A DNA stretch of 39,492 nt from a virus. Positions 8,694 to 33,300 of this stretch are shown piece after piece; the first letter of the stretch is position 1; the number at the start of each line of letters is the position of its first letter. The translations under genes were made by a program, and so were the position numbers. Below the pieces are notes generated by a model. It was not told the origin of the DNA and did not search any database. It saw only the letters and a program-made list of their open reading frames with translations. The stretch is taken from positions 1 to 39,492 of the IMG/VR virus record IMGVR_UViG_3300030419_005136. The stretch is one strand, 5' to 3'.

Positions 8694-10663
8694 AACCAGC
8701 TGCCTCCTTGAGTTTGCAGCCAGCCGCCACCCGCTGCCGGGGCTTGTGCCTGGGCGGGGGCGGGTGGCGGTGTTTTATCCGGTGGCGGGGTGGCCATGAC
8801 CGGCTGTTGGTTGGGGTCAAAGCCAAAGCGCTGCATCGACACGTAGAGCGCCGCCAAGGCGTACACCAAGCAATCAAGCGCTTCGTTTCGGCGCCCGCCG
8901 GAATCCCATAGATATTTGCGCTGGCCTTTCACCACACGGGGTAGCTTCACCTCGGCGGTGAGCTGCTTTAGCTCGTCCTCGTCACACAACTCGTCGTTAG
9001 CGGGAAAGTGAATACAGCCCTCGACCGGCACGCCGGGTTGTGGCTGGATTTTCAGACGGTTATAAATCAGCTCTTTGGCGTTATTGGTGCCTACCTCAGT
9101 GAGGTAAACGCCTCTATGCTTCTTGCGCGGAAAGTTAGCAATGGGCTTGCCGTAGTCGTTGGCCCCCCTCACGGGCACCACCCACATCAGGCCGTGCTTT
9201 TTCGACTGGCTGTAAACCTCGTCGGTGTAGCTGCCGCCCGAGTCCCAACCCCAGCGAATGACGCTCATCACGCCGCCATCTTCGCGGGTGTACGTGCGGT
9301 GCAGGCGCTCGCCCACTTTTTTCAGCAGCTCCGCGCCTGCCGGGTCGCCGTAGAGTATCCAGCGATCCACCAGCCACATTTCTTGGCCAGCGCCCACCGC
9401 CCATACGCGGCCCTCGTAACGGTCGTCTTGGGTGTCGATGCCGCCAAACAGCCCCACGGCGCGGTTGGGCACCTGGGCGTAAACCTCGCGCCTGCCGTAG
9501 AGCAATTCCCAGTCCAGCTTTTCGCCGTACTCGTCTTCCCACGTTTCGCCCAACGTCGTATTAACAAACGTCTTGAGCTTGGTGGCGTCGCCTTTGGCGT
9601 CGAGGAAGTCGTAAACGATTTGCGACCAGGTGGTGAGCGGGCTGTAGGCGGTCCAGATATGAAATGACACGGTGCGCGGGGTGGGTATCGGCTGGTCGTC
9701 TTTATCGAAAAAGTCGATGCCGTCCCGCGTCCAAATACCGGTTTTCTCACAGACGTAGCGGGCCTGGGCGATGCTGTGCGTACGGTTTTCGTCATGCAGC
9801 TCATGTTGACGGATCACACAGCCGTTATGCTCACACAGGTAGAACGCGCTTTCCGCGTCCCCCTTGTCCCACTTGAACCCGTAGGGCTCGTCTTTGCCTC
9901 CCCACTTCAACACCTGCTCTTCACCGCAATGTGGGCAAGGCACGTTGCAGCGCAGTAGGTGGGGCGACTCCTCAGCGGCAAGGGTTATCTGACACGACCC
10001 GGCCAGCTTGGGCGTCGAGCCGCGCACCGACTTGGGAAACGTCGCGCCTTCAAGGCGCTTGTCGCCCAACGTGGTAGGCGTACCTTCGCGCTCGATGTCG
10101 CTATCAAAACCAGATAGCTCGTCGTAAAAAACGCCATCGGCGCTTATCTCGCGGTAGTTGCGAGCCGCCTTACCACCGTGCATAAACAGCTGCTTGCCGT
10201 TGGCGAAGCGCTTGGCGGCGGTGGTGTTGTCCGTGTGTTTCTTGCCGTGCCAGGGTGCCAGCGCCAGCACCACCGGAATGTCACGGATCATGGTTTTAAC
10301 GTGGGTTTTGCTGAACTTGTCCCGGTCGTCGTCGGTGGGCGAGAACGTCAGACAGTTACGTTTCTTATGCTCCAGCAGATACCCAATCGCGGCCAACATC
10401 ATCTTGGTGTAACCAAGGCGGGCCGACTTGACGATATTGACCTTGCGGATCTCGTCGTTACCCATCGCGTTCAGAATGGCGACCTGAAACGGCAGGGTTT
10501 CCCACCGGCCTTCGTGGTAGCTCGATTCCGACGACAGGTAAAAGTGTTCGTTGGCCCATTCCACGGTGGTCATGGGTGGCGGGCGGTGTAAGGCCGCCAA
10601 ACCAAGGCGCACCGCCTTGGCCAGCTCTTCTAGCTGCTCAGTTGTTGGCGGCGATAAATTCAT
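8690..10663 (-). CDS. terL: terminase large subunit (lambda gpA family)
   Basis: 657 aa. The motif KSARLGYTK matches the lambda gpA P-loop KSARVGYSK. It follows the small subunit with an overlap. Confidence 0.85.
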   Translation of the reverse strand: MNLSPPTTEQLEELAKAVRLGLAALHRPPPMTTVEWANEHFYLSSESSYHEGRWETLPFQVAILNAMGNDEIRKVNIVKSARLGYTKMMLAAIGYLLEHKKRNCLTFSPTDDDRDKFSKTHVKTMIRDIPVVLALAPWHGKKHTDNTTAAKRFANGKQLFMHGGKAARNYREISADGVFYDELSGFDSDIEREGTPTTLGDKRLEGATFPKSVRGSTPKLAGSCQITLAAEESPHLLRCNVPCPHCGEEQVLKWGGKDEPYGFKWDKGDAESAFYLCEHNGCVIRQHELHDENRTHSIAQARYVCEKTGIWTRDGIDFFDKDDQPIPTPRTVSFHIWTAYSPLTTWSQIVYDFLDAKGDATKLKTFVNTTLGETWEDEYGEKLDWELLYGRREVYAQVPNRAVGLFGGIDTQDDRYEGRVWAVGAGQEMWLVDRWILYGDPAGAELLKKVGERLHRTYTREDGGVMSVIRWGWDSGGSYTDEVYSQSKKHGLMWVVPVRGANDYGKPIANFPRKKHRGVYLTEVGTNNAKELIYNRLKIQPQPGVPVEGCIHFPANDELCDEDELKQLTAEVKLPRVVKGQRKYLWDSGGRRNEALDCLVYALAALYVSMQRFGFDPNQQPVMATPPPDKTPPPAPAQAQAPAAGGGWLQTQGGSWL

Positions 10664-12755: not shown

Positions 12756-12774
12756 GCAACACTTAGCGTGTTAA
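12756..12774. promoter_or_regulatory. ACAC-N5-GTGT operator-like palindrome overlapping a candidate -35 of a late or lysis promoter
   Basis: The site reads gcAACACttagcGTGTTaa. On the minus strand its arm overlaps TTGCAT-17nt-TATCGT, about 75 nt upstream of the terminator at 12635-12659. Confidence 0.4.
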
Positions 12775-12857: not shown

Positions 12858-14126
12858 TTACCCCGCCACCCCTTGCCACCACTGGGGCTGGTCGCTGTTG
12901 TGATAAAACGACAATCTTGGTTCTGTCTCGGTCAGAAACACGCTAAAACCGCGCTCACATAGCCAGGTATGCCAGCGCTCCAACGCATCGAGAATCTGCC
13001 GCTCAGCGTAGGTATGAATGTAGGTACGGTCGAGCTTCGATAGCGCATGGTTCAGCAACAACTCACCGGCCAGATACTCGACCCCGAGGTCAGCCCACGT
13101 TGTACGGGCCAGCTTACGCAGGTCATGGGAATGCCACCGCGCACCGCTGGCACTCACCACCAAATCAAACACGGCTGAACGGGATAGCGGCTTTCCTTTG
13201 GATGCACCAGGGAACAGATACACGCCCCGGTAACCGTTCGCCTGCTGATAAGCGCGGTAACGGGTTAGCAGCGTCACGGCCATGGGCGTTAACGGCAGGC
13301 GGTGTTGTCGCTTTGATTTTGTGTTGTCGGTAGGGATAGTCCAGGTGCGCGCTTCCAGATCGAACTGAGGCCACTTCGCTAAACGCGTTTCCCCTATGCG
13401 GGTGCCAAACAGCAGCATCAACAACAGCAGGAAACACCCCGGCGGTTCGCACGAACGCAAGGCGCTTATCAGATCGGGCACATCGGCAGCGGTTAGCGCC
13501 CCCGCCTTAGCTGGGGTTTTCGCGTCGATGAAATCACCCACATTCACGCCTGCGAAGGGGTCAGTATCCAGCAGGTTCAGCTTACGGGCTTGCTTAAACG
13601 CGGCTTTGATCACGCCAAATATCAAACGAACGTAAGCAACGGAATAATGCTCTTGCAGCGGCCACACCAAGCCACTGTCGATACACGCCGGGGTAATGCC
13701 TGCCAACGGCTGGGCACCGAACAGGGGCAATAGGTGCCGATTAACGGCGGTTTTGATCGATGATTTTCGAGTAGCGGATAACCGGCCATGAGACGCCGAA
13801 CGGTCACGATACCAACACAGCAGGTCAGCCACGGTTTCCCACGCATCGACGCCCACCGGCCCCGCCGGATCAAGCGCCAGCTTGGCCTCCAACTCAGGCA
13901 ACCGCGCCAGCAGGGCGCGGGTCGTCAACTCCGGGTAATTGCCCACCCGATGCCAATGGCCACGCCCACCCGCGTAGCGCACCACGTACCAGCTGGCACG
14001 CTCACGGGAAGCATGAAAGCGCACCCGCACCGGGTAGCGCGGGTCGCGCAACTGGAAAATATCAGGGTCAGGTAGGTGCCGCTTAATCGCAGCATCAGAG
14101 AGGGGAACAGCGAGGGTTTTAGGCAT
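12858..14126 (-). CDS. int: tyrosine integrase (P4-like)
   Basis: 422 aa. The C-terminal catalytic region reads ...RIGETRLAKW...HSHDLRKLARTTWADLGV...LLNHALSKLDRTYIHT (R, H-x-x-R, H, Y). Confidence 0.85.
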   Translation of the reverse strand: MPKTLAVPLSDAAIKRHLPDPDIFQLRDPRYPVRVRFHASRERASWYVVRYAGGRGHWHRVGNYPELTTRALLARLPELEAKLALDPAGPVGVDAWETVADLLCWYRDRSASHGRLSATRKSSIKTAVNRHLLPLFGAQPLAGITPACIDSGLVWPLQEHYSVAYVRLIFGVIKAAFKQARKLNLLDTDPFAGVNVGDFIDAKTPAKAGALTAADVPDLISALRSCEPPGCFLLLLMLLFGTRIGETRLAKWPQFDLEARTWTIPTDNTKSKRQHRLPLTPMAVTLLTRYRAYQQANGYRGVYLFPGASKGKPLSRSAVFDLVVSASGARWHSHDLRKLARTTWADLGVEYLAGELLLNHALSKLDRTYIHTYAERQILDALERWHTWLCERGFSVFLTETEPRLSFYHNSDQPQWWQGVAG

Positions 14127-16999: not shown

Positions 17000-17280
17000 G
17001 CCGCCACCCCGTCGCGCTCAGCCAGCACCGCCGCCCAAGGGCCATAGATGCCGTTATAATCCACCGCGCCAGCGGTCAACCGCACGATGCGCCCAGCGGT
17101 GCGTAAACTCGGGGCACGATCAAAGCGATACCAGCTCATCACCGTACGGGGCTTCTCGCTGAGCAGCGCGCCCGCACAGTCCGGCCCGCCCACTTGATCA
17201 ATCCAATCATTCAGCAACACTTTAGCGCACCATTTAACACGAATTGTGTTAAGCCTAGCGCGAAGATTGCCCACGTACAA
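16996..17280 (-). CDS. Cro/YdaS-like HTH regulator, first gene of the leftward operon
   Basis: It is divergent from the CI-like gene. The HTH-like segment is GGPDCAGALLSEKPRTVMSWYRFDRAPSLRTAGRIVRLTAGAV. The start codon is uncertain (TTG 17280 or an internal GTG). Confidence 0.5.
   Translation of the reverse strand: MYVGNLRARLNTIRVKWCAKVLLNDWIDQVGGPDCAGALLSEKPRTVMSWYRFDRAPSLRTAGRIVRLTAGAVDYNGIYGPWAAVLAERDGVAA
17234..17252. promoter_or_regulatory. operator-like perfect palindrome TTAACAC-gaatt-GTGTTAA
   Basis: 7-bp perfect arms with a 5-bp spacer, at the 5' edge of the Cro-like ORF facing the CI gene. Confidence 0.6.
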
Positions 17281-17298: not shown

Positions 17299-17317
17299 CT
17301 TACACGCTTTGTGTATT
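17299..17317. promoter_or_regulatory. operator-like palindrome cTTACAC-gcttt-GTGTAtt in the cI/cro divergent region
   Basis: It has the same ACAC-N5-GTGT core, in the 131-bp intergenic region between the divergent regulators. Confidence 0.55.
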
Positions 17318-17411: not shown

Positions 17412-18065
17412 ATGTCACAGCAAAGCGACAGACAGGACAAAAAAGAGCTAATCGCACAGCGACTAGTGGAAGTGCGCACCCACTTAGGGTGGTCGATCCG
17501 CGACGCAGTCGAAGCGCTCGGCTACGTGCGCTCTCGTTATACCAACTGGGAGCTAGGCATTCGCATGCCCGGCTATCAAGAATTGGAAGACATCGGCAAC
17601 GTAACTGGCTGCAACCCCGGCTATTTTGTCGGCTGGACAAACCGCATGATCGACAGCAGCTACGTCGTGCTAGACCGCACCACGGTTAAAACCCGTGGCG
17701 GCTCGATCACCGTGCAAAACGCCACCGATGTAGCCGCCTACCGCGACGACTACCTAGCCGAAAAAGGGCTAAAGCCCAGCAGTATTATCACCGTCAAAGC
17801 CGAAGATGACGCCATGGAAGGGGTTATCAGCAAGGGCGATTTAGCGCTAATCGACATGAGCCGCAAGCCCGATGCCGTGCGCGACCTGTTCGCCATCCTC
17901 GTGGGTGATCGTATCTGGCTGCGCTGGATACGCCCGGAAATCAACGGCAGCTACACCATGAGCGCCGAAAACAGCCACCAATACCCGGATGAAACCCTCA
18001 CCACCGAGCAGCTACAACAGCTCAACATCATCGGACGCGTCGCCATCATCGAGCACGAACGCTAA
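17412..18065 (+). CDS. CI-like repressor: XRE HTH + S24 peptidase-like domain lacking the catalytic Ser and Lys
   Basis: The N-terminal HTH is LIAQRLVEVRTHLGWSIRDAVEALGYVRSRYTNWELG. The C-terminal LexA/CI-like fold has DDAM in place of GDSM/GNSM and WLRWI in place of VKRL/FKKL. Confidence 0.75.
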   Translation: MSQQSDRQDKKELIAQRLVEVRTHLGWSIRDAVEALGYVRSRYTNWELGIRMPGYQELEDIGNVTGCNPGYFVGWTNRMIDSSYVVLDRTTVKTRGGSITVQNATDVAAYRDDYLAEKGLKPSSIITVKAEDDAMEGVISKGDLALIDMSRKPDAVRDLFAILVGDRIWLRWIRPEINGSYTMSAENSHQYPDETLTTEQLQQLNIIGRVAIIEHER

Positions 18066-18135: not shown

Positions 18136-18174
18136 ATAACACAATTAGTGTCACTCTTACACAGACTGTGTAAT
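18136..18174. promoter_or_regulatory. two adjacent operator-like palindromes (aTAACAC-aatta-GTGTCac; cTTACAC-agact-GTGTAAt) ahead of the rightward operon
   Basis: They have the same ACAC-N5-GTGT core as the sites at 17234 and 17299. They lie between the cI terminator and the gene at 18191 and overlap the -10-like TGTAAT. Confidence 0.55.
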
Positions 18175-18190: not shown

Positions 18191-18448
18191 ATGACCACGC
18201 AAGCGCTAGCCACCGTTGCCGCATCGCCCCCCATCGCCTGCACGCCACAAGCGCTGCACCAAGCACTGCGCGAAAGCGTGGCTATCGCCTGCGGCCTCGA
18301 AAAAATGGCCCAATGCGCGCTAGATGAAGGCGAGTACCCAGCGGAAGAACTCGACAACCTTTTTGCTCTCATTAACCGCCACCGCCGCGATTTAGAAGAG
18401 ATCAAGGCCGCGCTGGCCGAACTCGCCACGGGTGGCCGCCATGAATAA
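18191..18448 (+). CDS. hypothetical early protein
   Basis: ATG with an AGAGGG SD. 85 aa, acidic, no recognised motif. Confidence 0.5.
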   Translation: MTTQALATVAASPPIACTPQALHQALRESVAIACGLEKMAQCALDEGEYPAEELDNLFALINRHRRDLEEIKAALAELATGGRHE

Positions 18449-18842
18449 CGCCCTCACATGGCGCGACAACGACGCCCTCGCCCAGCCCGGCCAAGCCCTC
18501 AGCGACCAAGAGCTAGCCCACCTGCTCGCCCTCGCCAACGGCAACGCCCCTAGCGCCATTGCCGCCATGAACGGCACCAGCCGCGCCCAACAGCAGCAAC
18601 TAGAAAGCAGCCTGCGGGCCAAGCTGGGCGCGTTCAGCAAAGCGCACCTCATTACCCGCGCGTTCGTGCTGGGCGTGCTGCTACCTCGCTGCCTCACCGT
18701 GCTACTGATCGTCGCCACACTCGGTAATGGCGCCCAACAAGATGCCATCGCCCAGCGCCTACCCCGCCGCCCCACGCAAACCGCCAGCGCCCGCCTAATG
18801 CGTACTCAGCGGGGCAGTAGCGCAGGGGGTCGCCGCACATGA
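18441..18842 (+). CDS. LuxR/GerE-type HTH protein with hydrophobic C-terminal segment
   Basis: LSDQELAHLLALANGNAPSAIAAMNGTSRAQQQQLESSLRAKLGAFSKAHLITRAFVLGVL resembles the LuxR C-terminal HTH. The start could instead be GTG 18432. Confidence 0.45.
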   Translation: MNNALTWRDNDALAQPGQALSDQELAHLLALANGNAPSAIAAMNGTSRAQQQQLESSLRAKLGAFSKAHLITRAFVLGVLLPRCLTVLLIVATLGNGAQQDAIAQRLPRRPTQTASARLMRTQRGSSAGGRRT

Positions 18843-21991: not shown

Positions 21992-22257
21992 CCACAAAAC
22001 TGCATAGCGCTACTCTGCCCGAAGTCGCTGCAAAATCAGCGACCGGGTTTAGCAGCTCAACGGACATTGGCGCACAAGCGCCCCCAATCATCGTGTAGGC
22101 GCTATTTTTGTGCCCGCGTGATGCACTATGGCGGGCCGTGCGTGGGGCGCTTCGGCGCGCCGGGTTTCCAATGTCCCCGGTCTGCTAACCCGCGTACGGT
22201 TCGCCTCCATCGTTTAGCAGCGACAGGCGAACTCCAACAGACTTGGAGAATCGCACC

Positions 22258-23040
22258 ATGAGCACCCCCACTATCACAGTGTCTGGCGTCACCCTTCCCT
22301 ATATTGAATATCAGCAGCAACCCGTCGTCACTTTCGCCATGATCGACGGCGTACATTCAAAATCCAAGGCGACGGCACGACGCTCATTTCAGCGAAACAA
22401 AAAGCATTTTATTGAGGGTGAAGACTTCTATGCCCTTGATTCTGAAAGGTTGGGACAAATTGTCACTACCTATCCCGACCTGTTTCCGGCGGCAACCACA
22501 CGCCTAACCCTCTTCACCGAAACCGGCTACCTTATGCTGGTCAAATCGTTTACCGACGACCTCGCATGGCAAGTACAGCGCCAGCTCGTCAAAAGCTATT
22601 TCCGCGTCAAAGGCGCGATGCAGCCCACCACCGCCGAGCCCATCCCCACGCCCATCGACCACCGCCAGCGCGAACAGCTCACCAACGCGGCTAACGCCGT
22701 GTTTCGCAATTTCCACGGCATGCGCCAAAGCGCCACCGGCTGGTTTTACAACGGCGTGCGCACCGACTACTGCCTAAAACGCATCGAAGATTTAAGCCAG
22801 GACGACTTCCCGGCGGTGATGGAACGCCTCCAAGCCCTACGCCCCAAGGTGCGCCAATACGAAGATTTTAGGTATGACTTTCAACAGTCGTTTTTAAAAG
22901 AGGTGGTAGGCGAAGGCCAGCCCTACACGGCATGGATCAGCAAGCTAGCCGGTGGCCAACACCACATCGGCCAACGCCCCAACTGGAAAGCGATAGCCAA
23001 GCAAGTGCTAATCCACAACGGCTTACTCACCAAACAGTAA
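22258..23040 (+). CDS. ORF6N/KilA-N domain protein (antirepressor-type DNA-binding protein)
   Basis: ATG 22258 with a GGAGA SD. The N-terminus QPVVTFAMIDGVHSKSKATARRSFQRNKKHFIEGEDFY...LFTETGYLMLVKSFTDDLAWQVQRQLVKSYF fits ORF6N. Confidence 0.6.
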   Translation: MSTPTITVSGVTLPYIEYQQQPVVTFAMIDGVHSKSKATARRSFQRNKKHFIEGEDFYALDSERLGQIVTTYPDLFPAATTRLTLFTETGYLMLVKSFTDDLAWQVQRQLVKSYFRVKGAMQPTTAEPIPTPIDHRQREQLTNAANAVFRNFHGMRQSATGWFYNGVRTDYCLKRIEDLSQDDFPAVMERLQALRPKVRQYEDFRYDFQQSFLKEVVGEGQPYTAWISKLAGGQHHIGQRPNWKAIAKQVLIHNGLLTKQ

Positions 23041-23244: not shown

Positions 23245-23895
23245 ATGGGATACAAAATTGCCTTCGTGAGCCAAAAGGGCGGCGTCAGCAAAAGCACCCT
23301 AAGTCGAGCACTCGGCACCACCTATGCGGCGGCGGGCTGGAACGTCAAAATCGCCGACCTCGATATTAACCAGTCCACCTCGTTTACATGGCTGCAGCGC
23401 CGCCTCAAAAGCGGCGTAACGCCCGAGGTGGCGGTGGAAACCTTCGGCACGGTGGCCAGCGCCCTCAAAGTAGCTGACACCTACGACCTAATGATTTTCG
23501 ACGGTGCGCCCCACGCCACCAAAGCCACCGCCGAAGTGGCCCGGCTTGCGGATCTCGTCGTTCTGCCTACCGCGTTAAGCGTTGACGACCTTGAACCCAC
23601 CGTAAGGCTGGCCAACACACTCACCGGCCAAGAGGGCGTACCCATTGAGCGCATCGCCATCGCGCTGAGCAAAGTAGGCAAGAGCAAAACGCAGCTGCAG
23701 GATGCCCGCGCCTACCTCGCCCATACGCCCTATTTTGTACTCGATGGCCAAGTACCCGAGCGCGACGCGTTTGTATTAGCCCAAGATAAAGGGCTGTCGA
23801 TTGTTGAAACCCCCTTCAAAGGCCCGAAGGCCCAAGCGGATGAACTGATACAAAACATCATCAACCGCTTTGAATCACTCGTTCAGTCAGCGTGA
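23245..23895 (+). CDS. parA: ParA/ParF-type partition ATPase (small, type Ib)
   Basis: Deviant Walker A KGGVSKST in MGYKIAFVSQKGGVSKSTLSRALG. 216 aa, with no N-terminal HTH domain. Confidence 0.8.
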   Translation: MGYKIAFVSQKGGVSKSTLSRALGTTYAAAGWNVKIADLDINQSTSFTWLQRRLKSGVTPEVAVETFGTVASALKVADTYDLMIFDGAPHATKATAEVARLADLVVLPTALSVDDLEPTVRLANTLTGQEGVPIERIAIALSKVGKSKTQLQDARAYLAHTPYFVLDGQVPERDAFVLAQDKGLSIVETPFKGPKAQADELIQNIINRFESLVQSA

Positions 23896-25364: not shown

Positions 25365-25877
25365 CTATCGCAACGATTTAACCAGTGTCAGCTCATCGCT
25401 GGGCAAAGGCTTAAAACCGTATCGCTTATAAAAATCCACCGCATCAGGCAACGCGTTTATCATCAGGGCCACAGACCCCACTAAACGCGACTGATCGGCT
25501 GCAGTTTGCCAAGCAGCCAGTAGCAAACGGCAACCGACCCCCTTGCCTTTTAGTCGGCTATCGACGGCTAAACGCCCTAACGTGGTCACGGGAACGCTTC
25601 GGGGCATGTTCTTTTTTAACTTGCCCATCATTTTTTCGCGGTCCACTGCACCAGATGCAAGCGCAAAATATCCTAGCACTAGCTTTGTGCCTGGGGCGCA
25701 CACTACATAGACCGTAGTAGCACCACTTTGATGGTTGCCTAACGCTTCACTGGCTAAAAACTTATTTAGCGTGAACACGCCACAATCGAAGTGGCTTAGG
25801 TCGTGCTGAGGCGTTAAGAGCTCTGGGGCTGCGACGACGCCCAAATCGGTGTTTTGTTGAGAAGTTTCTGAAAGCAT
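25365..25877 (-). CDS. GNAT-family acetyltransferase toxin (TacT/AtaT/KacT-like)
   Basis: GGAGGA SD. The N-terminus has PELLTPQHDLSHFDCGVFTLNKFL and the acetyl-CoA loop RLAVDSRLKGKGVGCRLL. It pairs with an upstream RHH/DUF1778-like gene. Confidence 0.75.
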   Translation of the reverse strand: MLSETSQQNTDLGVVAAPELLTPQHDLSHFDCGVFTLNKFLASEALGNHQSGATTVYVVCAPGTKLVLGYFALASGAVDREKMMGKLKKNMPRSVPVTTLGRLAVDSRLKGKGVGCRLLLAAWQTAADQSRLVGSVALMINALPDAVDFYKRYGFKPLPSDELTLVKSLR

Positions 25878-26122
25878 GGGTCCTCCGATGCTGGCTGTTT
25901 AATAGCCTCTTCGAAGAACGCGTAGTCGGTTTCATTCAGCATGTAGAATCGTCGGTTCAGCAGTACCTCTTCGGCTTTTCGACATGCGGCTTCCACCACG
26001 AAACTGGTTCGATCTCCCCCCAGCTCCGCTACGGCTCTATCGATCAAGGCGCGTTTTTTAGGGTCAACACGCATATTGAGTGCCAGTGGCTTAGCCACTG
26101 CCTCAGCAGCTGTGCTTTTCAT
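25814..26122 (-). CDS. DUF1778/RHH antitoxin (TacA-like)
   Basis: LNMRVDPKKRALIDRAVAELGGDRTSFVVEAACRKAEEVLLNRRFYMLNETDYAFFEEAI. It overlaps the toxin start by 64 nt. Confidence 0.7.
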   Translation of the reverse strand: MKSTAAEAVAKPLALNMRVDPKKRALIDRAVAELGGDRTSFVVEAACRKAEEVLLNRRFYMLNETDYAFFEEAIKQPASEDPCFQKLLNKTPIWASSQPQSS

Positions 26123-28389: not shown

Positions 28390-29355
28390 CTAGTAACGTC
28401 GCTGCCGGTCTAGCCACTCTTCATACGGCGGGTACTTGATGCGCACCAGCTTGTTCACCTCGGCATGGCTGGCACCGGGGTTATCGCGCACCACCTGGGC
28501 AAAGTAGGCGTTTGCCTCTTGGTTATAGCGGCGCTGCAGTTCTTTTTCATCGTTGGCGTCGGGTAGATCCTTCTTACCCCGGCGCTGCTTCTGCATCGCT
28601 CTGGGGCCGCTGCCTGCCATCGCTAGGCGGCTACGGGCCTGGGCGGCGTCGTACGCCTTGGGGTGCTGTTCGCGGTGCTTACGGCGGGCTTTCTTAATGC
28701 GGTTGCTGCACCAGTCGCGGAACTCCTTAAACTTCTGGTAGCCCACACGCCCCAGCGCCAGCAGAAAATCCGGGTTGAGTAGCTTCACAGCAGGCCGGGC
28801 GCGCTTAGTACCGTCGGCTTTCACCTCATGCTGCAAATGCACCGTAAACGCGCCAGCGAGCTTTAAGCGCCGGAAGGCGCGCCAAAAACGTTGGCTAGGC
28901 TCGGGGGCTTCCGGGGTGCTGCCGGGTGCCAGCAGGCCCGCCACGCGGGCAATTTCCGCACAGCTACGGTGTTTAAAACCACCATCCGCTAGTGGGGTGC
29001 CCACGCGCAAACTGGCGAACTCGGTAAACTGAATGATGGCAGAAAGCACCAGCGACTCAGCAGCGCGGGCCTCAGATCGGTTACAGCGGGGGTTGCCATC
29101 GGCGTTGGCCTTGCCGTTCAGGTTGGCCAGCGTGGGCAATAGGCCGGGGCTGGTGTAGTAGGCTTTGGCACCGTCTACCAGCGCTTGCAGTGTGGCGGGT
29201 AGCCGCCCCTTTTTAACGGGCTGGCAATAGCGCTCAAATTCCCCTTTCGCGGGGTTATGCCCGCACCGGTTACCGGTGCCCCACCACTTGCCGGGGTGTT
29301 CGTATGGCACGCGCCCCCACGTGAGGGGCTGCGCGTTCTCTGCTGCAGCATCCAT
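28390..29355 (-). CDS. repA: plasmid replication initiator, IncFII RepA-like
   Basis: 321 aa from ATG 29355. The central block ...SEARAAESLVLSAIIQFTEFASLRVGTPLADGGFKHRSCAEIARVAGL...RFWRAFRRLKLAGAFTV... and the basic C-terminus are colinear with IncFII RepA as I recall it. Confidence 0.5.
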   Translation of the reverse strand: MDAAAENAQPLTWGRVPYEHPGKWWGTGNRCGHNPAKGEFERYCQPVKKGRLPATLQALVDGAKAYYTSPGLLPTLANLNGKANADGNPRCNRSEARAAESLVLSAIIQFTEFASLRVGTPLADGGFKHRSCAEIARVAGLLAPGSTPEAPEPSQRFWRAFRRLKLAGAFTVHLQHEVKADGTKRARPAVKLLNPDFLLALGRVGYQKFKEFRDWCSNRIKKARRKHREQHPKAYDAAQARSRLAMAGSGPRAMQKQRRGKKDLPDANDEKELQRRYNQEANAYFAQVVRDNPGASHAEVNKLVRIKYPPYEEWLDRQRRY

Positions 29356-29411
29356 TCGCAAAATCTCTGTAGAGACTTGCCCGCGCCTTGTGCAGCAGTT
29401 AAACTCTGGGG

Positions 29412-29491
29412 AGTCGGTTTTGTGCCCCAGTCGCTAGTGCTGCTGCCCAAAACATCCGAGAAGCCCCAGCGCCAACTGGGGCTTTTCTTTT
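29412..29491 (+). ncRNA. candidate antisense (countertranscript) RNA against the repA leader
   Basis: Plus-strand TTGCCC (29377-82), a 17-nt spacer and TAAACT (29400-05). The terminator AAGCCCCAG-cgccaa-CTGGGGCTT+TTCTTTT (29461-29491) works only on the plus strand. The RNA would lie 57-136 nt upstream of the repA ATG. Confidence 0.35.
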
Positions 29492-29597
29492 GGGTGTCTA
29501 TCTAGTTAATTTGTATGTCTTTTTTGCCTTCCAACCAACGCCGTCCGGCGCTGGCCATCAATTCACTGTTTGCCAATCCTAGCATCCCGAAAGCGTT

Positions 29598-29616
29598 TTG
29601 ACACGAACTGTGTTAA
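29598..29616. promoter_or_regulatory. operator-like palindrome TTGACAC-gaact-GTGTTAA upstream of the repA leader
   Basis: It has the same ACAC-N5-GTGT core and TTAACAC-type arms as the immunity-region sites. Confidence 0.5.
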
Positions 29617-29658: not shown

Positions 29659-29871
29659 CTAGTGAGGGCCGTGCTTGCCCGCTCGCTGCAGCTCATGCCC
29701 CAGCGCATCGCGCACCATCGCTAGAATCATGTGATTGCCCGCGTGCGGCTCTTCGCCAGTCACCTGCATAAATTCCATCATCACATCAATGTTTTGCAGC
29801 GTATCGCGCTGGTTAATGCCCACCAGTACGTTAGTGTTATATCGCTGCGTCGTTCCCTGCTGCTCGCTCAT
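29659..29871 (-). CDS. 70-aa orphan protein under a LexA-box promoter (candidate SOS-induced antirepressor)
   Basis: ATG 29871 with a GGGGAGG SD. The product begins MSEQQGTTQRYNTNVLVGINQRDTLQNIDVMMEFMQVTGEEPH...; no recognised family. Confidence 0.6.
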   Translation of the reverse strand: MSEQQGTTQRYNTNVLVGINQRDTLQNIDVMMEFMQVTGEEPHAGNHMILAMVRDALGHELQRAGKHGPH

Positions 29872-29910
29872 TGTGTCGCCTCCCCGGTGCGCGTTTGCGC
29901 ACACCTAAAA

Positions 29911-29926
29911 CTGTTTATACATACAG
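29911..29926. promoter_or_regulatory. LexA (SOS) box CTGT-ttatacat-ACAG
   Basis: A perfect CTGT-N8-ACAG with an AT-rich spacer. On the minus strand it lies immediately downstream of the -10-like hexamers TAGTAT/TATGAT. Confidence 0.65.
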
Positions 29927-30095
29927 CATCATACTACACCGCATGACGCTAATGGAAAATTGCTAAGCGGTTTTAAGCGCTTACGCGGATGTTAGCGGCC
30001 CTGAACCCGCGCTCGAAATAACGCTCAACACCGCCAACACCTTTATCAAAACACGAGCGACGTGCCGCGCAAGCATCCGAGAGACTTCTGTGCAG

Positions 30096-30592: not shown

Positions 30593-32424
30593 TGGCTATC
30601 CTCTAAAGAAACCAGACGTTGAAATTCAGGTTCAGAGACAGCTTTCGGTATAGCTTTTACTAACCGAACTACTCCGTTCAAATAAAACGCATTTTCTGAA
30701 TTTCTACCCAGTAGCGCTTGTGTGATATTTGGTAGTGACGCTGGCACACTGCTAACCGTAGTGCCATTAACACCGAACATCGCTAATCCGTTTTTGAATG
30801 TAACCCCGGCCCTTATTTTTCCCGCCAATACAGGTGTGATTGGGGGGTTATAGGACACGCCGTTTGCAACAAATCGATTAAGTATTGCCCCGTCGCTTGT
30901 AGAGTAGTATTGCGCGATGCGGTTATTATCGCTATCACCTAAAAAGTACAATGTTTGCGTAGTTTCTGAGGCATCTATTTCACACTCGATGATAAAAGTG
31001 CCCTCACTTGTATTAAACTCGGCCCCTAACTGCCGCGATATATTGTCAGCAGCGCGGGTAACAGGCGCACTCTCAGTGACGATTACGGGGCCGGGGACGG
31101 TGCCTTCGACGAGTTGGGCGTGGGCCAACAGAACGCTACCCGTCAGTGTTCCACTCCCAGGACTGGTTAGATTATCCCGAGACGCTGGGCGTAGCGTCCA
31201 ACGCGCCCTATTGTTCCCCAATCCGTTGTTTTCAACAGAGCATGAAATCCTGAAAACCCCACTAGAAATTTCATCCACTTTAGCTACAGCGTTTCCGTTT
31301 GTTAAAAACTCGCCAGTTGTTAGATCAACCCATACGCCTTCCTCTCTAACCGTGCCACCAGTATATGCAATCGATAGCCTCACCACATTGCTCGTTCCCG
31401 CAGAAACAATAGCCGATGCGGTTCTAGTTACAGTGTCGTTGGGGACTGCAATACTTCGGCCCAGGTATTCGTCAGCCGAATTGCTATTATCAGCCACTTC
31501 ATAAAACACGCTACCGTTAAACGGGGACTGTACCGAAGATGCACTGACAGAAACGGAGCTGTTCCACGCCGCATTACTAAAATCCGTAGACCACAACAAC
31601 TCATTCGTCACCGCCCCCGAAATCTGCGCCTGATACTGCTGCGTTTCAGGGTTCCACTCTCGCGCAATAACATTAGGCGGCACATACACGTATTTCAGCG
31701 AGCCATCGGCTGTATGCTGATATGCGAGCGTTCCACCTAGTCGCTCGAAGCCGTTCCAGAGTTCTTCGCTCTCTACTGCATCTTGCACCCCTCCATAAAG
31801 CGGCGTGCCTAGGCCATAGGCGGCTAGATTAAAATCTGAGTGCAGCGTTTGCCCGTTATCGCCTAGCCGTTGTAGCGAGCGATTCAAGCGCACGGCGGCG
31901 GAGTGCTTGGCGTCTACGCCTGTTTTTGTGTAGTACGTCGTGATGAGCGTGGCTGCGCCTGCATCGTTGCGGTAGACGCTGACACGCTCGGCTTCCGGCG
32001 CTTCGATCACGCGGAAGTAGTTCGTGTCTACCGTACCCGCTAGGCCCGCTGAAACGCTGGCGTAAGTAGCGGTGGCCTGGGCCACGGCATCGGCCATATT
32101 GCTCGCCGTAGTCGCACTACCGGCGGCGTCTACGGCACTGGCGTCGGCATCGCTGACCAGCCCATTGAGGGTTTGCAGGTCGAGATTGATACTGTCGCGG
32201 TCGTTGCTGGCTTGCTGCGCTGCGGCGCTGGCGGTTTGCGCTGCGCTATCAGCTTCGCCCGCTTTCTGCACAGCGTGACCGGTCATGGCTAGGCCCTGCT
32301 GCAGGGCGGGTACAAATCGCTCGATGTAGCCGGTGCCGTCTAGGCCGGTCGTGGGGTCGGCATCATCGGTAATAGTGATGCCGCTACCGCCGTACTCCGT
32401 GGGAAACGTGACGCTATTAGCCAT
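30589..32424 (-). CDS. tail fibre / receptor-binding protein
   Basis: The N-terminus ITITDDADPTTGLDGTGYIERFVPALQ followed by Ala/Ser/Gln-rich coiled sequence is typical of phage tail-fibre N-termini. The C-terminal half has much lower G+C. Confidence 0.65.
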   Translation of the reverse strand: MANSVTFPTEYGGSGITITDDADPTTGLDGTGYIERFVPALQQGLAMTGHAVQKAGEADSAAQTASAAAQQASNDRDSINLDLQTLNGLVSDADASAVDAAGSATTASNMADAVAQATATYASVSAGLAGTVDTNYFRVIEAPEAERVSVYRNDAGAATLITTYYTKTGVDAKHSAAVRLNRSLQRLGDNGQTLHSDFNLAAYGLGTPLYGGVQDAVESEELWNGFERLGGTLAYQHTADGSLKYVYVPPNVIAREWNPETQQYQAQISGAVTNELLWSTDFSNAAWNSSVSVSASSVQSPFNGSVFYEVADNSNSADEYLGRSIAVPNDTVTRTASAIVSAGTSNVVRLSIAYTGGTVREEGVWVDLTTGEFLTNGNAVAKVDEISSGVFRISCSVENNGLGNNRARWTLRPASRDNLTSPGSGTLTGSVLLAHAQLVEGTVPGPVIVTESAPVTRAADNISRQLGAEFNTSEGTFIIECEIDASETTQTLYFLGDSDNNRIAQYYSTSDGAILNRFVANGVSYNPPITPVLAGKIRAGVTFKNGLAMFGVNGTTVSSVPASLPNITQALLGRNSENAFYLNGVVRLVKAIPKAVSEPEFQRLVSLEDSQ

Positions 32425-33300
32425 TTATAGGATCTCCAGCAAAGCCATCGGGTTTTCGTAGTTAGCAAAATAGGGGTGGGTGATGGGGTTTAACGTCTCT
32501 TGCCTGCACAGCATCGCCCGCGCAAAGTTGGCGGGGCTGGGGGTCACTGAGTAGACGTAGAGTAGTTCGCCGACGATGTCCTGGGTGCGCTGTAGGCGGT
32601 GCAAACGTAGGAATGCTTCGTCTTCATTGAGAAGTTTCAGGTCAAACGAGACGGTGCGCTTGGGCGTCACCTCATCGGCGTACTCAGTGCGTGAGGGGTC
32701 GCGGGCCTCAGTCATCGTGGTGCCGCTGTTGTAGCCGTGCTGCACGCCGTAGCTGATGTTGTACTCCGGCTGCCAGGCATCGGTGAGTATGACGCGCCCC
32801 AGCTCGATGGCCCCGTCGGGGTTGCCGGGGTCGCTTAGCTCGACGTCTACCGCCGTGCCGATCACCCGCTCGTCAAAAAACAGGATCATCAGCGGCGTGT
32901 ACGTGGCGCGGTCTTCCTCGCTGAGCCTGCGGTTCCAAAAATTGTCGTCGCCCCATATCACGTCGTTGAGCGTGTAGACGATGGGCCAGACGTTTTGCAC
33001 GCCCGTATCGGCGATCTCGTCGGTACGCTCGGCATCGCGGTACGCTCGGGCGCGAACCGTGGCCGTAGGGCTGAGGTTGTGGGCGGCGATGGCCACAGCG
33101 TGCAGCCGCCGCCGCCCGGGAAGGGTGAGCGTAAAACGCGTATCGGCGGGATCTAGCGATGCAGTTTTGGCAACGACCGATAGCCGCCGGTCTTGTACGT
33201 GGGCCAGCGGCAGCGTAGGCACCCAACTGCCCCCGCTGAGCGTGGCAGCGGGCACGTAGTTCGGCCAGCACAGTACGATTTTGTTGGGATCAAGTGCCAT
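32425..33300 (-). CDS. distal tail / baseplate-like protein
   Basis: ATG 33300. A 291-aa ORF between the post-tape-measure gene and the fibre. The assignment is positional. Confidence 0.5.
   Translation of the reverse strand: MALDPNKIVLCWPNYVPAATLSGGSWVPTLPLAHVQDRRLSVVAKTASLDPADTRFTLTLPGRRRLHAVAIAAHNLSPTATVRARAYRDAERTDEIADTGVQNVWPIVYTLNDVIWGDDNFWNRRLSEEDRATYTPLMILFFDERVIGTAVDVELSDPGNPDGAIELGRVILTDAWQPEYNISYGVQHGYNSGTTMTEARDPSRTEYADEVTPKRTVSFDLKLLNEDEAFLRLHRLQRTQDIVGELLYVYSVTPSPANFARAMLCRQETLNPITHPYFANYENPMALLEIL

Follow-up and report, generated by a model that had tools for sequence, protein, structure and literature searches.

A LexA-Boxed Small Gene Upstream of repA Encodes a Candidate Antirepressor in Circular Phage-Plasmids

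How does a temperate phage register DNA damage in its host when its own repressor appears unable to respond by cutting itself? The question is raised by the IMG/VR virus record IMGVR_UViG_3300030419_005136, of which positions 1 to 39,492 were analyzed (hereafter the window; all coordinates refer to this whole stretch of 39,492 nucleotides). On its minus strand the window carries a gene for a 70-amino-acid (aa) protein, located between the tail genes and a repA-like replication initiator. An initial annotation, made by reading the sequence, placed this gene under the control of LexA, the repressor of the SOS response, and proposed that it encodes an antirepressor. We consider it reasonably likely that the 70-aa protein is indeed a LexA-controlled antirepressor that acts like AntC of phage N15 or Tum of phage 186, and that a plasmid-like temperate phage of Vreelandella/Halomonas would thus register DNA damage through this locus.

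A LexA Box Overlies the Putative Promoter of the Small Gene

All coordinates in the initial annotation proved correct on the minus strand, including those of the two -10 hexamers, the core of the LexA box, the leader hairpin, the GGAGG motif, the ATG and stop codons, and an ACAC-N5-GTGT repeat at 29613-29601. The gene and its control region comprise the following features.

29931 to 29959, minus strand: putative sigma-70 promoter of the 70-aa gene, inferred from reading of the sequence
29909 to 29928: LexA (SOS) box, the 20-mer TGCTGTATGTATAAACAGTT on the gene strand, with its CTGT-N8-ACAG core at 29926-29911
29887 to 29902, minus strand: hairpin GUGCGC-AAAC-GCGCAC in the 5' untranslated region (UTR), just before the ribosome-binding site
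29659 to 29883, minus strand: Shine-Dalgarno sequence GGAGG (29883-29879) and 70-aa coding sequence (ATG at 29871, stop codon ending at 29659)

The putative promoter combines a weak -35 element, TTTTCC (29959-29954), with a 17-nucleotide spacer and a good -10 element, TAGTAT (29936-29931), which is overlapped by an alternative -10 element, TATGAT (29933-29928); the whole stretch is AT-rich. Within the putative promoter, the block TGTAGTATGATGCTGTAT is kept in four Halomonas-type elements while its flanks have diverged. The box, whose core reads CTGTATGTATAAACAG on the minus strand, starts 5 nt after the -10 element, and bound LexA would therefore cover the expected transcription start. This geometry agrees with the proposal that the box overlaps the core promoter of the gene, and the box is kept across hosts.

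The bare CTGT-N8-ACAG pattern occurs once in the window, a uniqueness that was first noted by eye for intergenic regions and that a pattern count confirms. Because 0.46 copies are expected and at least one is present in 36 of 100 shuffled sequences, the 16-mer pattern by itself is not significant. The full site was scored with an approximate E. coli-type LexA matrix of 20 positions, which was assembled from 21 E. coli sites and may not match the LexA protein of the host; on this scale the 20-mer reaches 26.9 bits, a score that ranks third when set against the training sites. The best scores in 200 shuffles of the window have a median of 11.1 bits, a 95th percentile of 15.0 bits and a maximum of 20.8 bits, and against this background the score of the 20-mer is significant. 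As a check on the matrix, a strong site was recovered before the umuD homologue of N15, and the annotated LexA site of the p95 promoter of phage 186 has the same form. The sole other window site above 14 bits (15.7 bits, 30694-30713) lies inside a tail-fibre gene and is at the 95% level of the null distribution. No second strong LexA site was detected by matrix scan in the window or in the complete 45.9-kb plasmid of H. qaidamensis, and the box of the small gene appears to be the sole SOS input of the element.

Conservation of the box provides the decisive support. In all 16 homologous loci that were examined, the best matrix site within the 120 nt preceding the start codon of the small gene scores 19.6-25.7 bits, with site centres 22-80 nt upstream of the codon; when upstream regions are shuffled, a single one in 8000 reaches 19 bits. 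The 286,797 bases of fetched loci contain 18 sites that score 19 bits or more, and 17 of these precede the small gene. The 16 loci represent about 10 lineages, namely Halomonas, Aeromonas, Edwardsiella, a Salmonella-type contig, three Vibrio groups, two Pseudomonas groups, Delftia with phage PARCL1pr, and one metagenome, and the box-bearing hosts span four gammaproteobacterial orders and one betaproteobacterium. Between lineages the spacer and the surrounding promoters vary to the point of being unalignable, such that the CTG/CAG arms alone are constant. Even the position of the box differs, lying over the -35 region of a TAGAAT promoter in Aeromonas and after the -10 element in Halomonas.

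The CTGT-N8-ACAG motif is general for most Gamma- and Betaproteobacteria, and the box is kept in five Halomonas-hosted elements; on these two grounds we infer that Vreelandella LexA binds it. We consider LexA control of the small gene very likely; the pattern of conservation argues strongly that this gene is a member of the SOS regulon in every element that carries it.

Between the box and the coding sequence, the 5'-UTR hairpin can be extended to 8 bp (about 29904-29885, around the 6-bp core at 29902-29887), with a fold of -16.1 kcal/mol (z = -2.5). Folding predicts a hairpin with a different stem at the same place in the relative L002. In a Halomonas metagenome-assembled genome (MAG) a comparison of the letters shows the sequence at this place to be identical to that of the window, and in H33-56 a GC-rich palindrome is seen here by eye; the hairpin of H. 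qaidamensis is weak. Its role is possibly the stabilization of mRNA. An in-frame GTG at 29904 would yield a protein of 81 aa. Close homologues are 70 aa long, and the ATG with its Shine-Dalgarno sequence is the conserved start.

A side observation concerns the one site of at least 19 bits in the 287 kb that is located away from the small-gene family. This LexA-type site of 20.8 bits is found on the P. lundensis plasmid pPL-38ph (L007, 1567-1586), directly before a DNA adenine methylase gene.

The Small Protein Belongs to a Widespread Family

When the 70-aa open reading frame (ORF) is compared with two relatives, third-codon-position changes dominate and dN/dS values of 0.11-0.27 are obtained. 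This pattern of purifying selection indicates that the ORF is a real gene. The initial annotation called it an orphan, a description that does not survive wider searches. Six close clusters were recovered by a word-indexed search, and a narrow Halomonas profile gave three matches in a full HMMER scan of 1.84 billion representatives. The wider family was reached by synteny, that is, by looking upstream of RepA homologues. P2-like plasmids of ~37 kb from Aeromonas veronii and Edwardsiella ictaluri carry a 69-aa ORF at the same place, and this ORF matches the window protein with E = 4e-5 in pairwise BLASTP. A subsequent profile search brought the family to at least 57 clusters of 61-89 aa, all of which are labelled 'hypothetical'; scans of genome contigs for more relatives gave no matches.

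Members occur in Halomonas/Vreelandella, Aeromonas, Edwardsiella, Vibrio parahaemolyticus, Pseudomonas lundensis, P. aeruginosa and Delftia lacustris, and tblastn and profile searches found phage-borne members in Pseudomonas phage PARCL1pr and Vibrio phage VPHZ6. Salmonella and Citrobacter appear as source labels only, on two further clusters. Databases list a protein identical to that of the window for Vreelandella (Halomonas) aquamarina, in Tara Oceans data and on more than 50 contigs. The longest contigs with a member pile up at 34-46 kb, and all 11 of the 11 plasmid records for which typing was seen are non-mobilizable. The carriers of the family are phage-plasmids of roughly 36-46 kb. We also noted a divergent and unannotated family member on plasmid p1 of V. 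alginolyticus (L022, 9886-10122), which has a 24.3-bit LexA box at 9854-9873 and adjoins an IncFII-type repA on the 5' side of the latter.

An alignment of 48 sequences reveals that N14, L16, G45 and A56 are invariant and that P15 (about 90%) and T24 are nearly so, which gives the family motif G-N-P-L-[IV]-G ... D-T; the window protein has Val at position 15. With this alignment as input, AlphaFold2 predicts a two-helix hairpin (helices 21-38 and 44-66) at a pLDDT of 77, preceded by an N-terminal segment that lacks regular secondary structure and holds the motif, and in which residues 1-8 fall below a pLDDT of 50. The window protein is acidic (pI 5.9, charge -3), as is most of the family (median pI 5.2). 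No family was assigned to the 70-aa protein by Pfam, PHROGs or NCBIfam at E <= 0.01, and no DinI-, PsiB- or SulA-type profile in Pfam, NCBIfam or PHROGs matches it. The same domain and family searches with 10 relatives returned nothing, leaving all 11 members without a PHROG match. Our literature search found no paper describing the small-protein family or the regulation of the named relatives. A small, mostly acidic, predicted helical protein that lacks a DNA-binding domain would fit an antirepressor.

The Resident Repressor Has Lost the Residues for Self-Cleavage

An antirepressor needs a target, and the candidate in the window is a CI-type repressor with a set of repeated operators.

17412 to 18065, plus strand: 217-aa CI-type repressor with a helix-turn-helix (HTH) domain and a degenerate S24 domain (Pfam HTH_3/HTH_19; Peptidase_S24, 1.4e-9)
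17237 to 17249 and 17302 to 17314: operator copies between the repressor gene and the divergent early operon
18139 to 18151 and 18159 to 18171: operator copies just after the repressor gene
12759 to 12771: operator copy
29598 to 29616 (core 29601-29613): operator copy TTAACAC-N5-GTGTCAA between the small gene and repA

The repressor was said to lack the residues for self-cleavage, and alignment with LexA, lambda CI and UmuD agrees. At the position of the nucleophile these proteins have G-x-SM, whereas the 217-aa repressor reads A-E-D-D-A-M (DDAM), a Ser to Ala change. At the position of the general base the family has V-K-R/K-L, whereas the repressor reads W-L-R-W-I-R (WLRWIR), in which Arg replaces the catalytic Lys. 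The alignment also reveals no Ala-Gly cleavage site. The repressor therefore has neither the Ser-Lys dyad nor the Ala-Gly or Cys-Gly site that defines the autoproteolytic S24 domains of the LexA/CI/UmuD type. Among 12 aligned repressors of the clade, Arg occupies the Lys position in all, and the Ser position is occupied by S, A or C. This variation across the clade implies that the nucleophile is not under constraint. Judging from these substitutions, self-cleavage can be excluded for the Ser-to-Ala repressor of the window, and the S24 domain appears to be a fossil, kept for folding or dimerization and not for catalysis.

The initial annotation also took ACAC-N5-GTGT to be an operator, and the repeat is a genuine one. 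The ACAC-N5-GTGT sequence, which extends to TTAACAC-N5-GTGTTAA, is present in 6 copies in the window where 0.39 are expected, and it is likely to be the operator of the 217-aa repressor. The copy between the small gene and repA lies in a block (29598-29616) that is identical in three Halomonas elements. The small gene itself is located ~11.6 kb from the repressor gene and on the opposite strand, and thus lies outside the immunity region.

Three further observations concern repressors. The 230-aa proteins of L001 and L002 were considered as homologues of the repressor and rejected, since alignment finds them unrelated and the true homologue is present in the full plasmid record. In the V. parahaemolyticus plasmid pVPGX2 (L018, record 31857-32682), the homologue is split over two frames and the N-terminal part alone is annotated, which could stem from a sequencing error or from a true frameshift that may have inactivated the repressor. 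Downstream of the repressor gene, the window encodes a 136-aa protein (18432-18842) with a weak match to a PHROG 'sigma factor' family (1.7e-8).

The Small Gene Tracks the Repressor and Not the Replicon

Every plasmid record with a match to the small gene is among the top matches of the repressor search. For two distant repressor homologues, those of V. alginolyticus p1 and Vibrio sp. HDW18, the small gene had been missed by tblastn; direct inspection located in both a family member with a LexA box, unannotated in one of them, immediately before the initiator.

We compared the repressors, small proteins and initiators of seven elements in a BLAST matrix. All of the repressors are homologous to one another (E <= 1e-17), and the small proteins are connected by homology into a single network, in which the closest pairs mirror the closest pairs of repressors. 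The initiators sort into four groups between which no similarity was detectable; one of these groups is IncFII_repA (Pfam). The combination of unrelated initiators with a single repressor clade argues that the small gene tracks the repressor and not the replicon. Moreover, in the fetched loci of two ordinary plasmids that encode a RepA homologue, no small gene is annotated upstream of it and a strong LexA site is absent. The small gene and the repressor clade also stay together across P2-like myovirus, Mu-like-baseplate and siphovirus-type virion modules.

The SOS Transcript Probably Extends into repA

In all loci with a visible downstream gene, that gene is the initiator, which immediately follows the small gene and reads in the same direction. 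The features that flank it in the window are as follows.

30156 to 30138 and 30120 to 30101, minus strand: two intrinsic-terminator-like hairpins at the end of the tail-gene operon (terminator scan)
29458 to 29487 (with 29440-29500): hairpin in the repA leader, which on the plus strand is a textbook intrinsic terminator (terminator scan)
28390 to 29355, minus strand: repA-like replication initiator (ATG at 29355; in-frame TTG upstream at 29361)

On the upstream side, alignment reveals that the first tail-end hairpin (30156-30138) and its T-run are kept in relatives, and the two terminators would insulate the SOS promoter from late transcription. A blastn search of 5 kb against phage records produced a sole match, 37 bp of terminator.

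On the downstream side, the identification of the initiator as RepA stands up well. Homologues of the 323-aa protein were found by tblastn in 185 plasmid records, and many are annotated 'plasmid replication protein repA'; the protein matches phrog_20951 and is without a Pfam family. A putative repA promoter was recognized by eye, with a -35 element GTGTCA (29604-29599) that is overlapped by the operator and a -10 element TAGGAT (29581-29576). The 217-aa repressor therefore probably throttles replication as well.

The plus-strand terminator in the repA leader implies an antisense RNA against the leader, and hence a form of copy-number control. On the repA-sense strand the same region reads as an A-run, a GC stem with a UUGGCG loop, and then UUCUCGG, with a poor T-tract. 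The layout of A-run, stem and TTCTCGG recurs with other stem sequences in the RepA leaders of Aeromonas, Edwardsiella, Delftia and phage PARCL1pr. The UUGGCG loop resembles the motif of the IncI/IncB/IncFII antisense control systems.

The initial annotation raised the possibility that the derepressed transcript also feeds replication. A terminator scan of the gene strand found no terminator-like site between the stop codon of the small gene and the repA promoter and operator, so that read-through into repA is geometrically plausible. The only hairpin en route lies downstream of the promoter of repA itself, and thus cannot block passage completely. Transcription from the SOS promoter probably contributes to the expression of repA. 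By analogy with IncFII, a CopB-like repressor of repA was considered as the function of the small protein and rejected, because the protein is acidic and has no DNA-binding motif, and because its control by LexA would go unexplained.

A Model for Induction

We propose that in the lysogen host LexA, bound to the box at 29909-29928 across the transcription start, would keep the 70-aa gene silent. Upon DNA damage LexA would be cleaved and the gene transcribed. The small acidic, helical protein would then bind the 217-aa repressor, which by its residues cannot answer RecA by cutting itself, and binding would remove the repressor from its TTAACAC-N5-GTGTTAA operators. As a result, both the early lytic operon and the repA promoter that the repressor controls would open, and the same SOS transcript would probably continue into the repA leader.

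Comparison with Known Antirepressors

This arrangement has precedents. Tum of phage 186 and GfoA, GftA and GfhA of the Gifsy prophages are LexA-controlled antirepressors that act against repressors not cleavable in response to RecA (PMC3121763). Induction of N15 uses the LexA-controlled antirepressor AntC, according to Mardanov & Ravin 2007 as cited in PMC3121763 and PMC10432266, and the N15 repressor CB is reported to be non-proteolytic (PMC10432266).

Among known systems, N15 is the closest. Like the window element, it is a plasmid prophage whose repressor joins an HTH domain to a degenerate S24 domain, both catalytic residues being Gln in CB; it has a strong LexA box before a small (~75-79 aa) ORF outside the immunity region; and its repressor also controls the repA promoter, as judged from an operator annotated beside the replication gene. 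Unlike the window element, N15 is linear, encodes a protelomerase and a 1324-aa RepA, and has its LexA-boxed ORF away from repA, whereas the window element is of the circular-plasmid type and encodes an integrase, ParA and a 321-aa RepA, its small gene lying directly 5' of repA. In the course of this comparison we located a 21.9-bit LexA site and an unannotated 75-79-aa ORF between genes 47 and 48 of N15 (L027 19563-19832, record 39562-39831). By our own assignment this ORF is presumably antC. CB corresponds to gp38, in which the Ser and the Lys of the S24 domain are each changed to Gln.

Phage 186 is similar in promoter architecture. Its LexA site, TACTGTATGTTTATACAGTA, is very similar to that of the window and lies over the -10 element of a dedicated promoter (p95); the antirepressor gene begins ~20 nt downstream of the box, beside a replication gene and away from the immunity region. 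The two systems differ in that Tum is a 146-aa protein with a DinI-like C-terminal half. In addition, the CI protein of 186 is not known to have an S24-like domain, and 186 integrates and is not known to replicate as a plasmid. As in the case proposed here, the repressor targeted by Tum is not RecA-cleavable (PMC3121763).

GfoA, GftA, GfhA and FsoA of Gifsy and Fels-1 resemble the candidate in being small, directly LexA-controlled and encoded outside the immunity region, and they inactivate non-cleavable repressors by binding to them (Lemire et al. 2011, PMC3121763). Compared by description, they differ in that their targets are short (136 aa) and carry no S24 remnant, and in that the genes form a dinI-antirepressor-irsA operon in integrated lambdoid prophages.

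Small ORFs that neighbor the repA or par genes of plasmid-like phages have been demonstrated experimentally to be antirepressors (Silpe et al. 2023, PMC10432266). These TF-smORF/Qtip systems include mutually non-homologous ORFs of ~57-79 aa beside the replication or partition genes of linear plasmid-like phages, and the smORFs inactivate their cognate cI without proteolysis (PMC10432266). In contrast to the candidate, they are switched on by an adjacent phage transcription factor, independently of SOS, and the cI is also self-cleaving. The small gene of the window is without a flanking regulator gene and has terminators and a tail gene upstream, whereas one relative, on pVPGX2, has a divergent HTH gene by the small gene. 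Phages with non-proteolytic repressors were explicitly set aside by Silpe et al. 2023 (PMC10432266).

At the level of sequence, the window has what characterizes a LexA-controlled antirepressor system, namely a boxed promoter, a non-cleavable repressor and a gene outside the immunity region. The small protein would be a functional analogue of Tum and AntC that constitutes a new family and is not a member of either of theirs.

Weighing the Alternatives

Several observations weigh against the antirepressor assignment. The family alignment has no detectable homology to the presumed AntC ORF of N15 (hhalign probability 0.1) or to Tum of 186 (0.3), both of which were tried and rejected as relatives. 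Nor is there any likeness in fold to known antirepressors, since Foldseek searches of two AlphaFold2 models against PDB and BFVD returned generic helical hairpins only (E > 0.5), besides the identical BFVD entry A0A516KYL4. The promoter was not called by a strict consensus scanner and its -35 element is weak, and a literature search gave no paper on LexA boxes in Halomonas. Several members of the repressor clade keep the Ser, and that of P. lundensis even has Ala-Gly. A LexA mutant with Lys changed to Arg retains some RecA-stimulated cleavage, and some residual self-cleavage is conceivable for the relatives that keep the Ser. Finally, the constant position 5' of a replication initiator could point to a role in replication.

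This last point is the basis of an alternative in which the locus is an SOS replication switch. The LexA promoter would mainly transcribe the initiator, bypassing both the repressor-controlled repA promoter and the antisense RNA, and the small protein would assist replication, for instance by counteracting copy-number control. The shared orientation of the two genes, the stretch free of terminator-like sites that leads from the stop codon to the repA operator and promoter, and the antisense-RNA-type hairpin in the repA leader are all as this explanation expects. However, the small protein is conserved over four dissimilar groups of initiators, which makes a factor for a specific Rep or leader RNA unlikely, and the two ordinary plasmids with the same RepA family have neither such a gene nor a LexA box upstream. 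A replication switch also gives the dead-protease repressor no SOS input, and read-through as an added output is compatible with an antirepressor. We regard the switch as unlikely. A different alternative holds that the protein is cargo, directed at the host or modulating the SOS response, as would a cell-division inhibitor, a RecA/LexA modulator of the DinI, PsiB or gp7 type, or a superinfection or defence factor, and that induction proceeds by another route. There are many LexA-regulated prophage genes of this type, with DinI homologues in the SOS operons of Gifsy and 186 (PMC3121763; 186 annotation), and a small protein without a recognizable domain might have such a role. Nonetheless, no similarity to DinI, PsiB or other families was found in Pfam, NCBIfam or PHROGs, and strict co-occurrence with one repressor clade over differing virion modules would be unexpected for cargo; we consider this alternative improbable. 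As for a chance motif or a non-functional ORF, one CTGT-N8-ACAG per 39 kb is ordinary, but the full-site score far above the null, the box in 16 of 16 loci, the purifying selection and the size of the family (at least 57 clusters) effectively refute it.

Within the antirepressor hypothesis, a more specific mechanism can be imagined. The N-terminal G-N-P-L-[IV]-G is the sole strongly conserved stretch outside the helices, and it resembles the cleavage-site strand of LexA, A-G|E-P-L-L. The GNPL motif might dock as a pseudo-substrate in the vestigial S24 cleft and so disrupt dimerization or DNA binding. In addition, the small gene immediately precedes initiators of four unrelated Rep families, which could be taken to mean that the LexA-gated transcript deliberately has two outputs, the second being delivery of the initiator. 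We view this combined proposal as speculative and quite unlikely to be correct in full; if it were true, one promoter would set immunity and copy number together.

Other Features of the Element

The window element encodes a tyrosine integrase (12858-14126), ParA (23245-23895) and RepA (28390-29355), and close relatives are complete circular plasmids (H. qaidamensis, 45.9 kb). It also encodes a 265-aa ORF6N protein (22243-23040) that matches PHROG 'anti-repressor' families (3e-40). This protein is present in the Halomonas relatives; in the P2-like relatives, the interval from parA to the repressor gene is without it. It was considered as an induction factor and rejected, having no LexA box and not being conserved with the repressor clade.

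At 25365-26122, a gene for a TacA-like antitoxin (102 aa) overlaps a gene for a GNAT acetyltransferase toxin-like protein (170 aa); the pair, which is found in the Halomonas MAG relative L011 as well, is probably a plasmid addiction module. By their tail-fibre genes, the H. qaidamensis plasmid (L001, 7081-8762) and the Halomonas MAG (L011, 7358-8555) carry genes for a reverse transcriptase and a bAvd protein, which together look like a diversity-generating retroelement. No counterpart was seen between the tail genes and the small gene of the window, a stretch on which no domain search was made.

Significance

Control of antirepressors by LexA is an established mechanism, and the advance here would be a new family and its breadth, with no new principle. 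If the assignment is correct, it names the missing SOS input of a widespread group of circular phage-plasmids, whose hosts include marine Vreelandella/Halomonas and Vibrio, the fish pathogens Aeromonas and Edwardsiella, Pseudomonas aeruginosa, and Delftia. The repressors of this group are annotated 'S24 peptidase' or 'LexA family', yet are predicted to be incapable of self-cleavage. The small proteins would fill, for circular phage-plasmids, the non-proteolytic class that was set aside by the TF-smORF study of 2023 (PMC10432266). The group has a searchable signature: a LexA box, a 61-89-aa protein with the GNPL motif directly 5' of a replication gene, and an HTH/pseudo-S24 repressor with W-x-R-W/Y-I/V/L-R. 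Use of this signature would correct annotation and would help to predict which phage-plasmids are inducible by DNA-damaging antibiotics.

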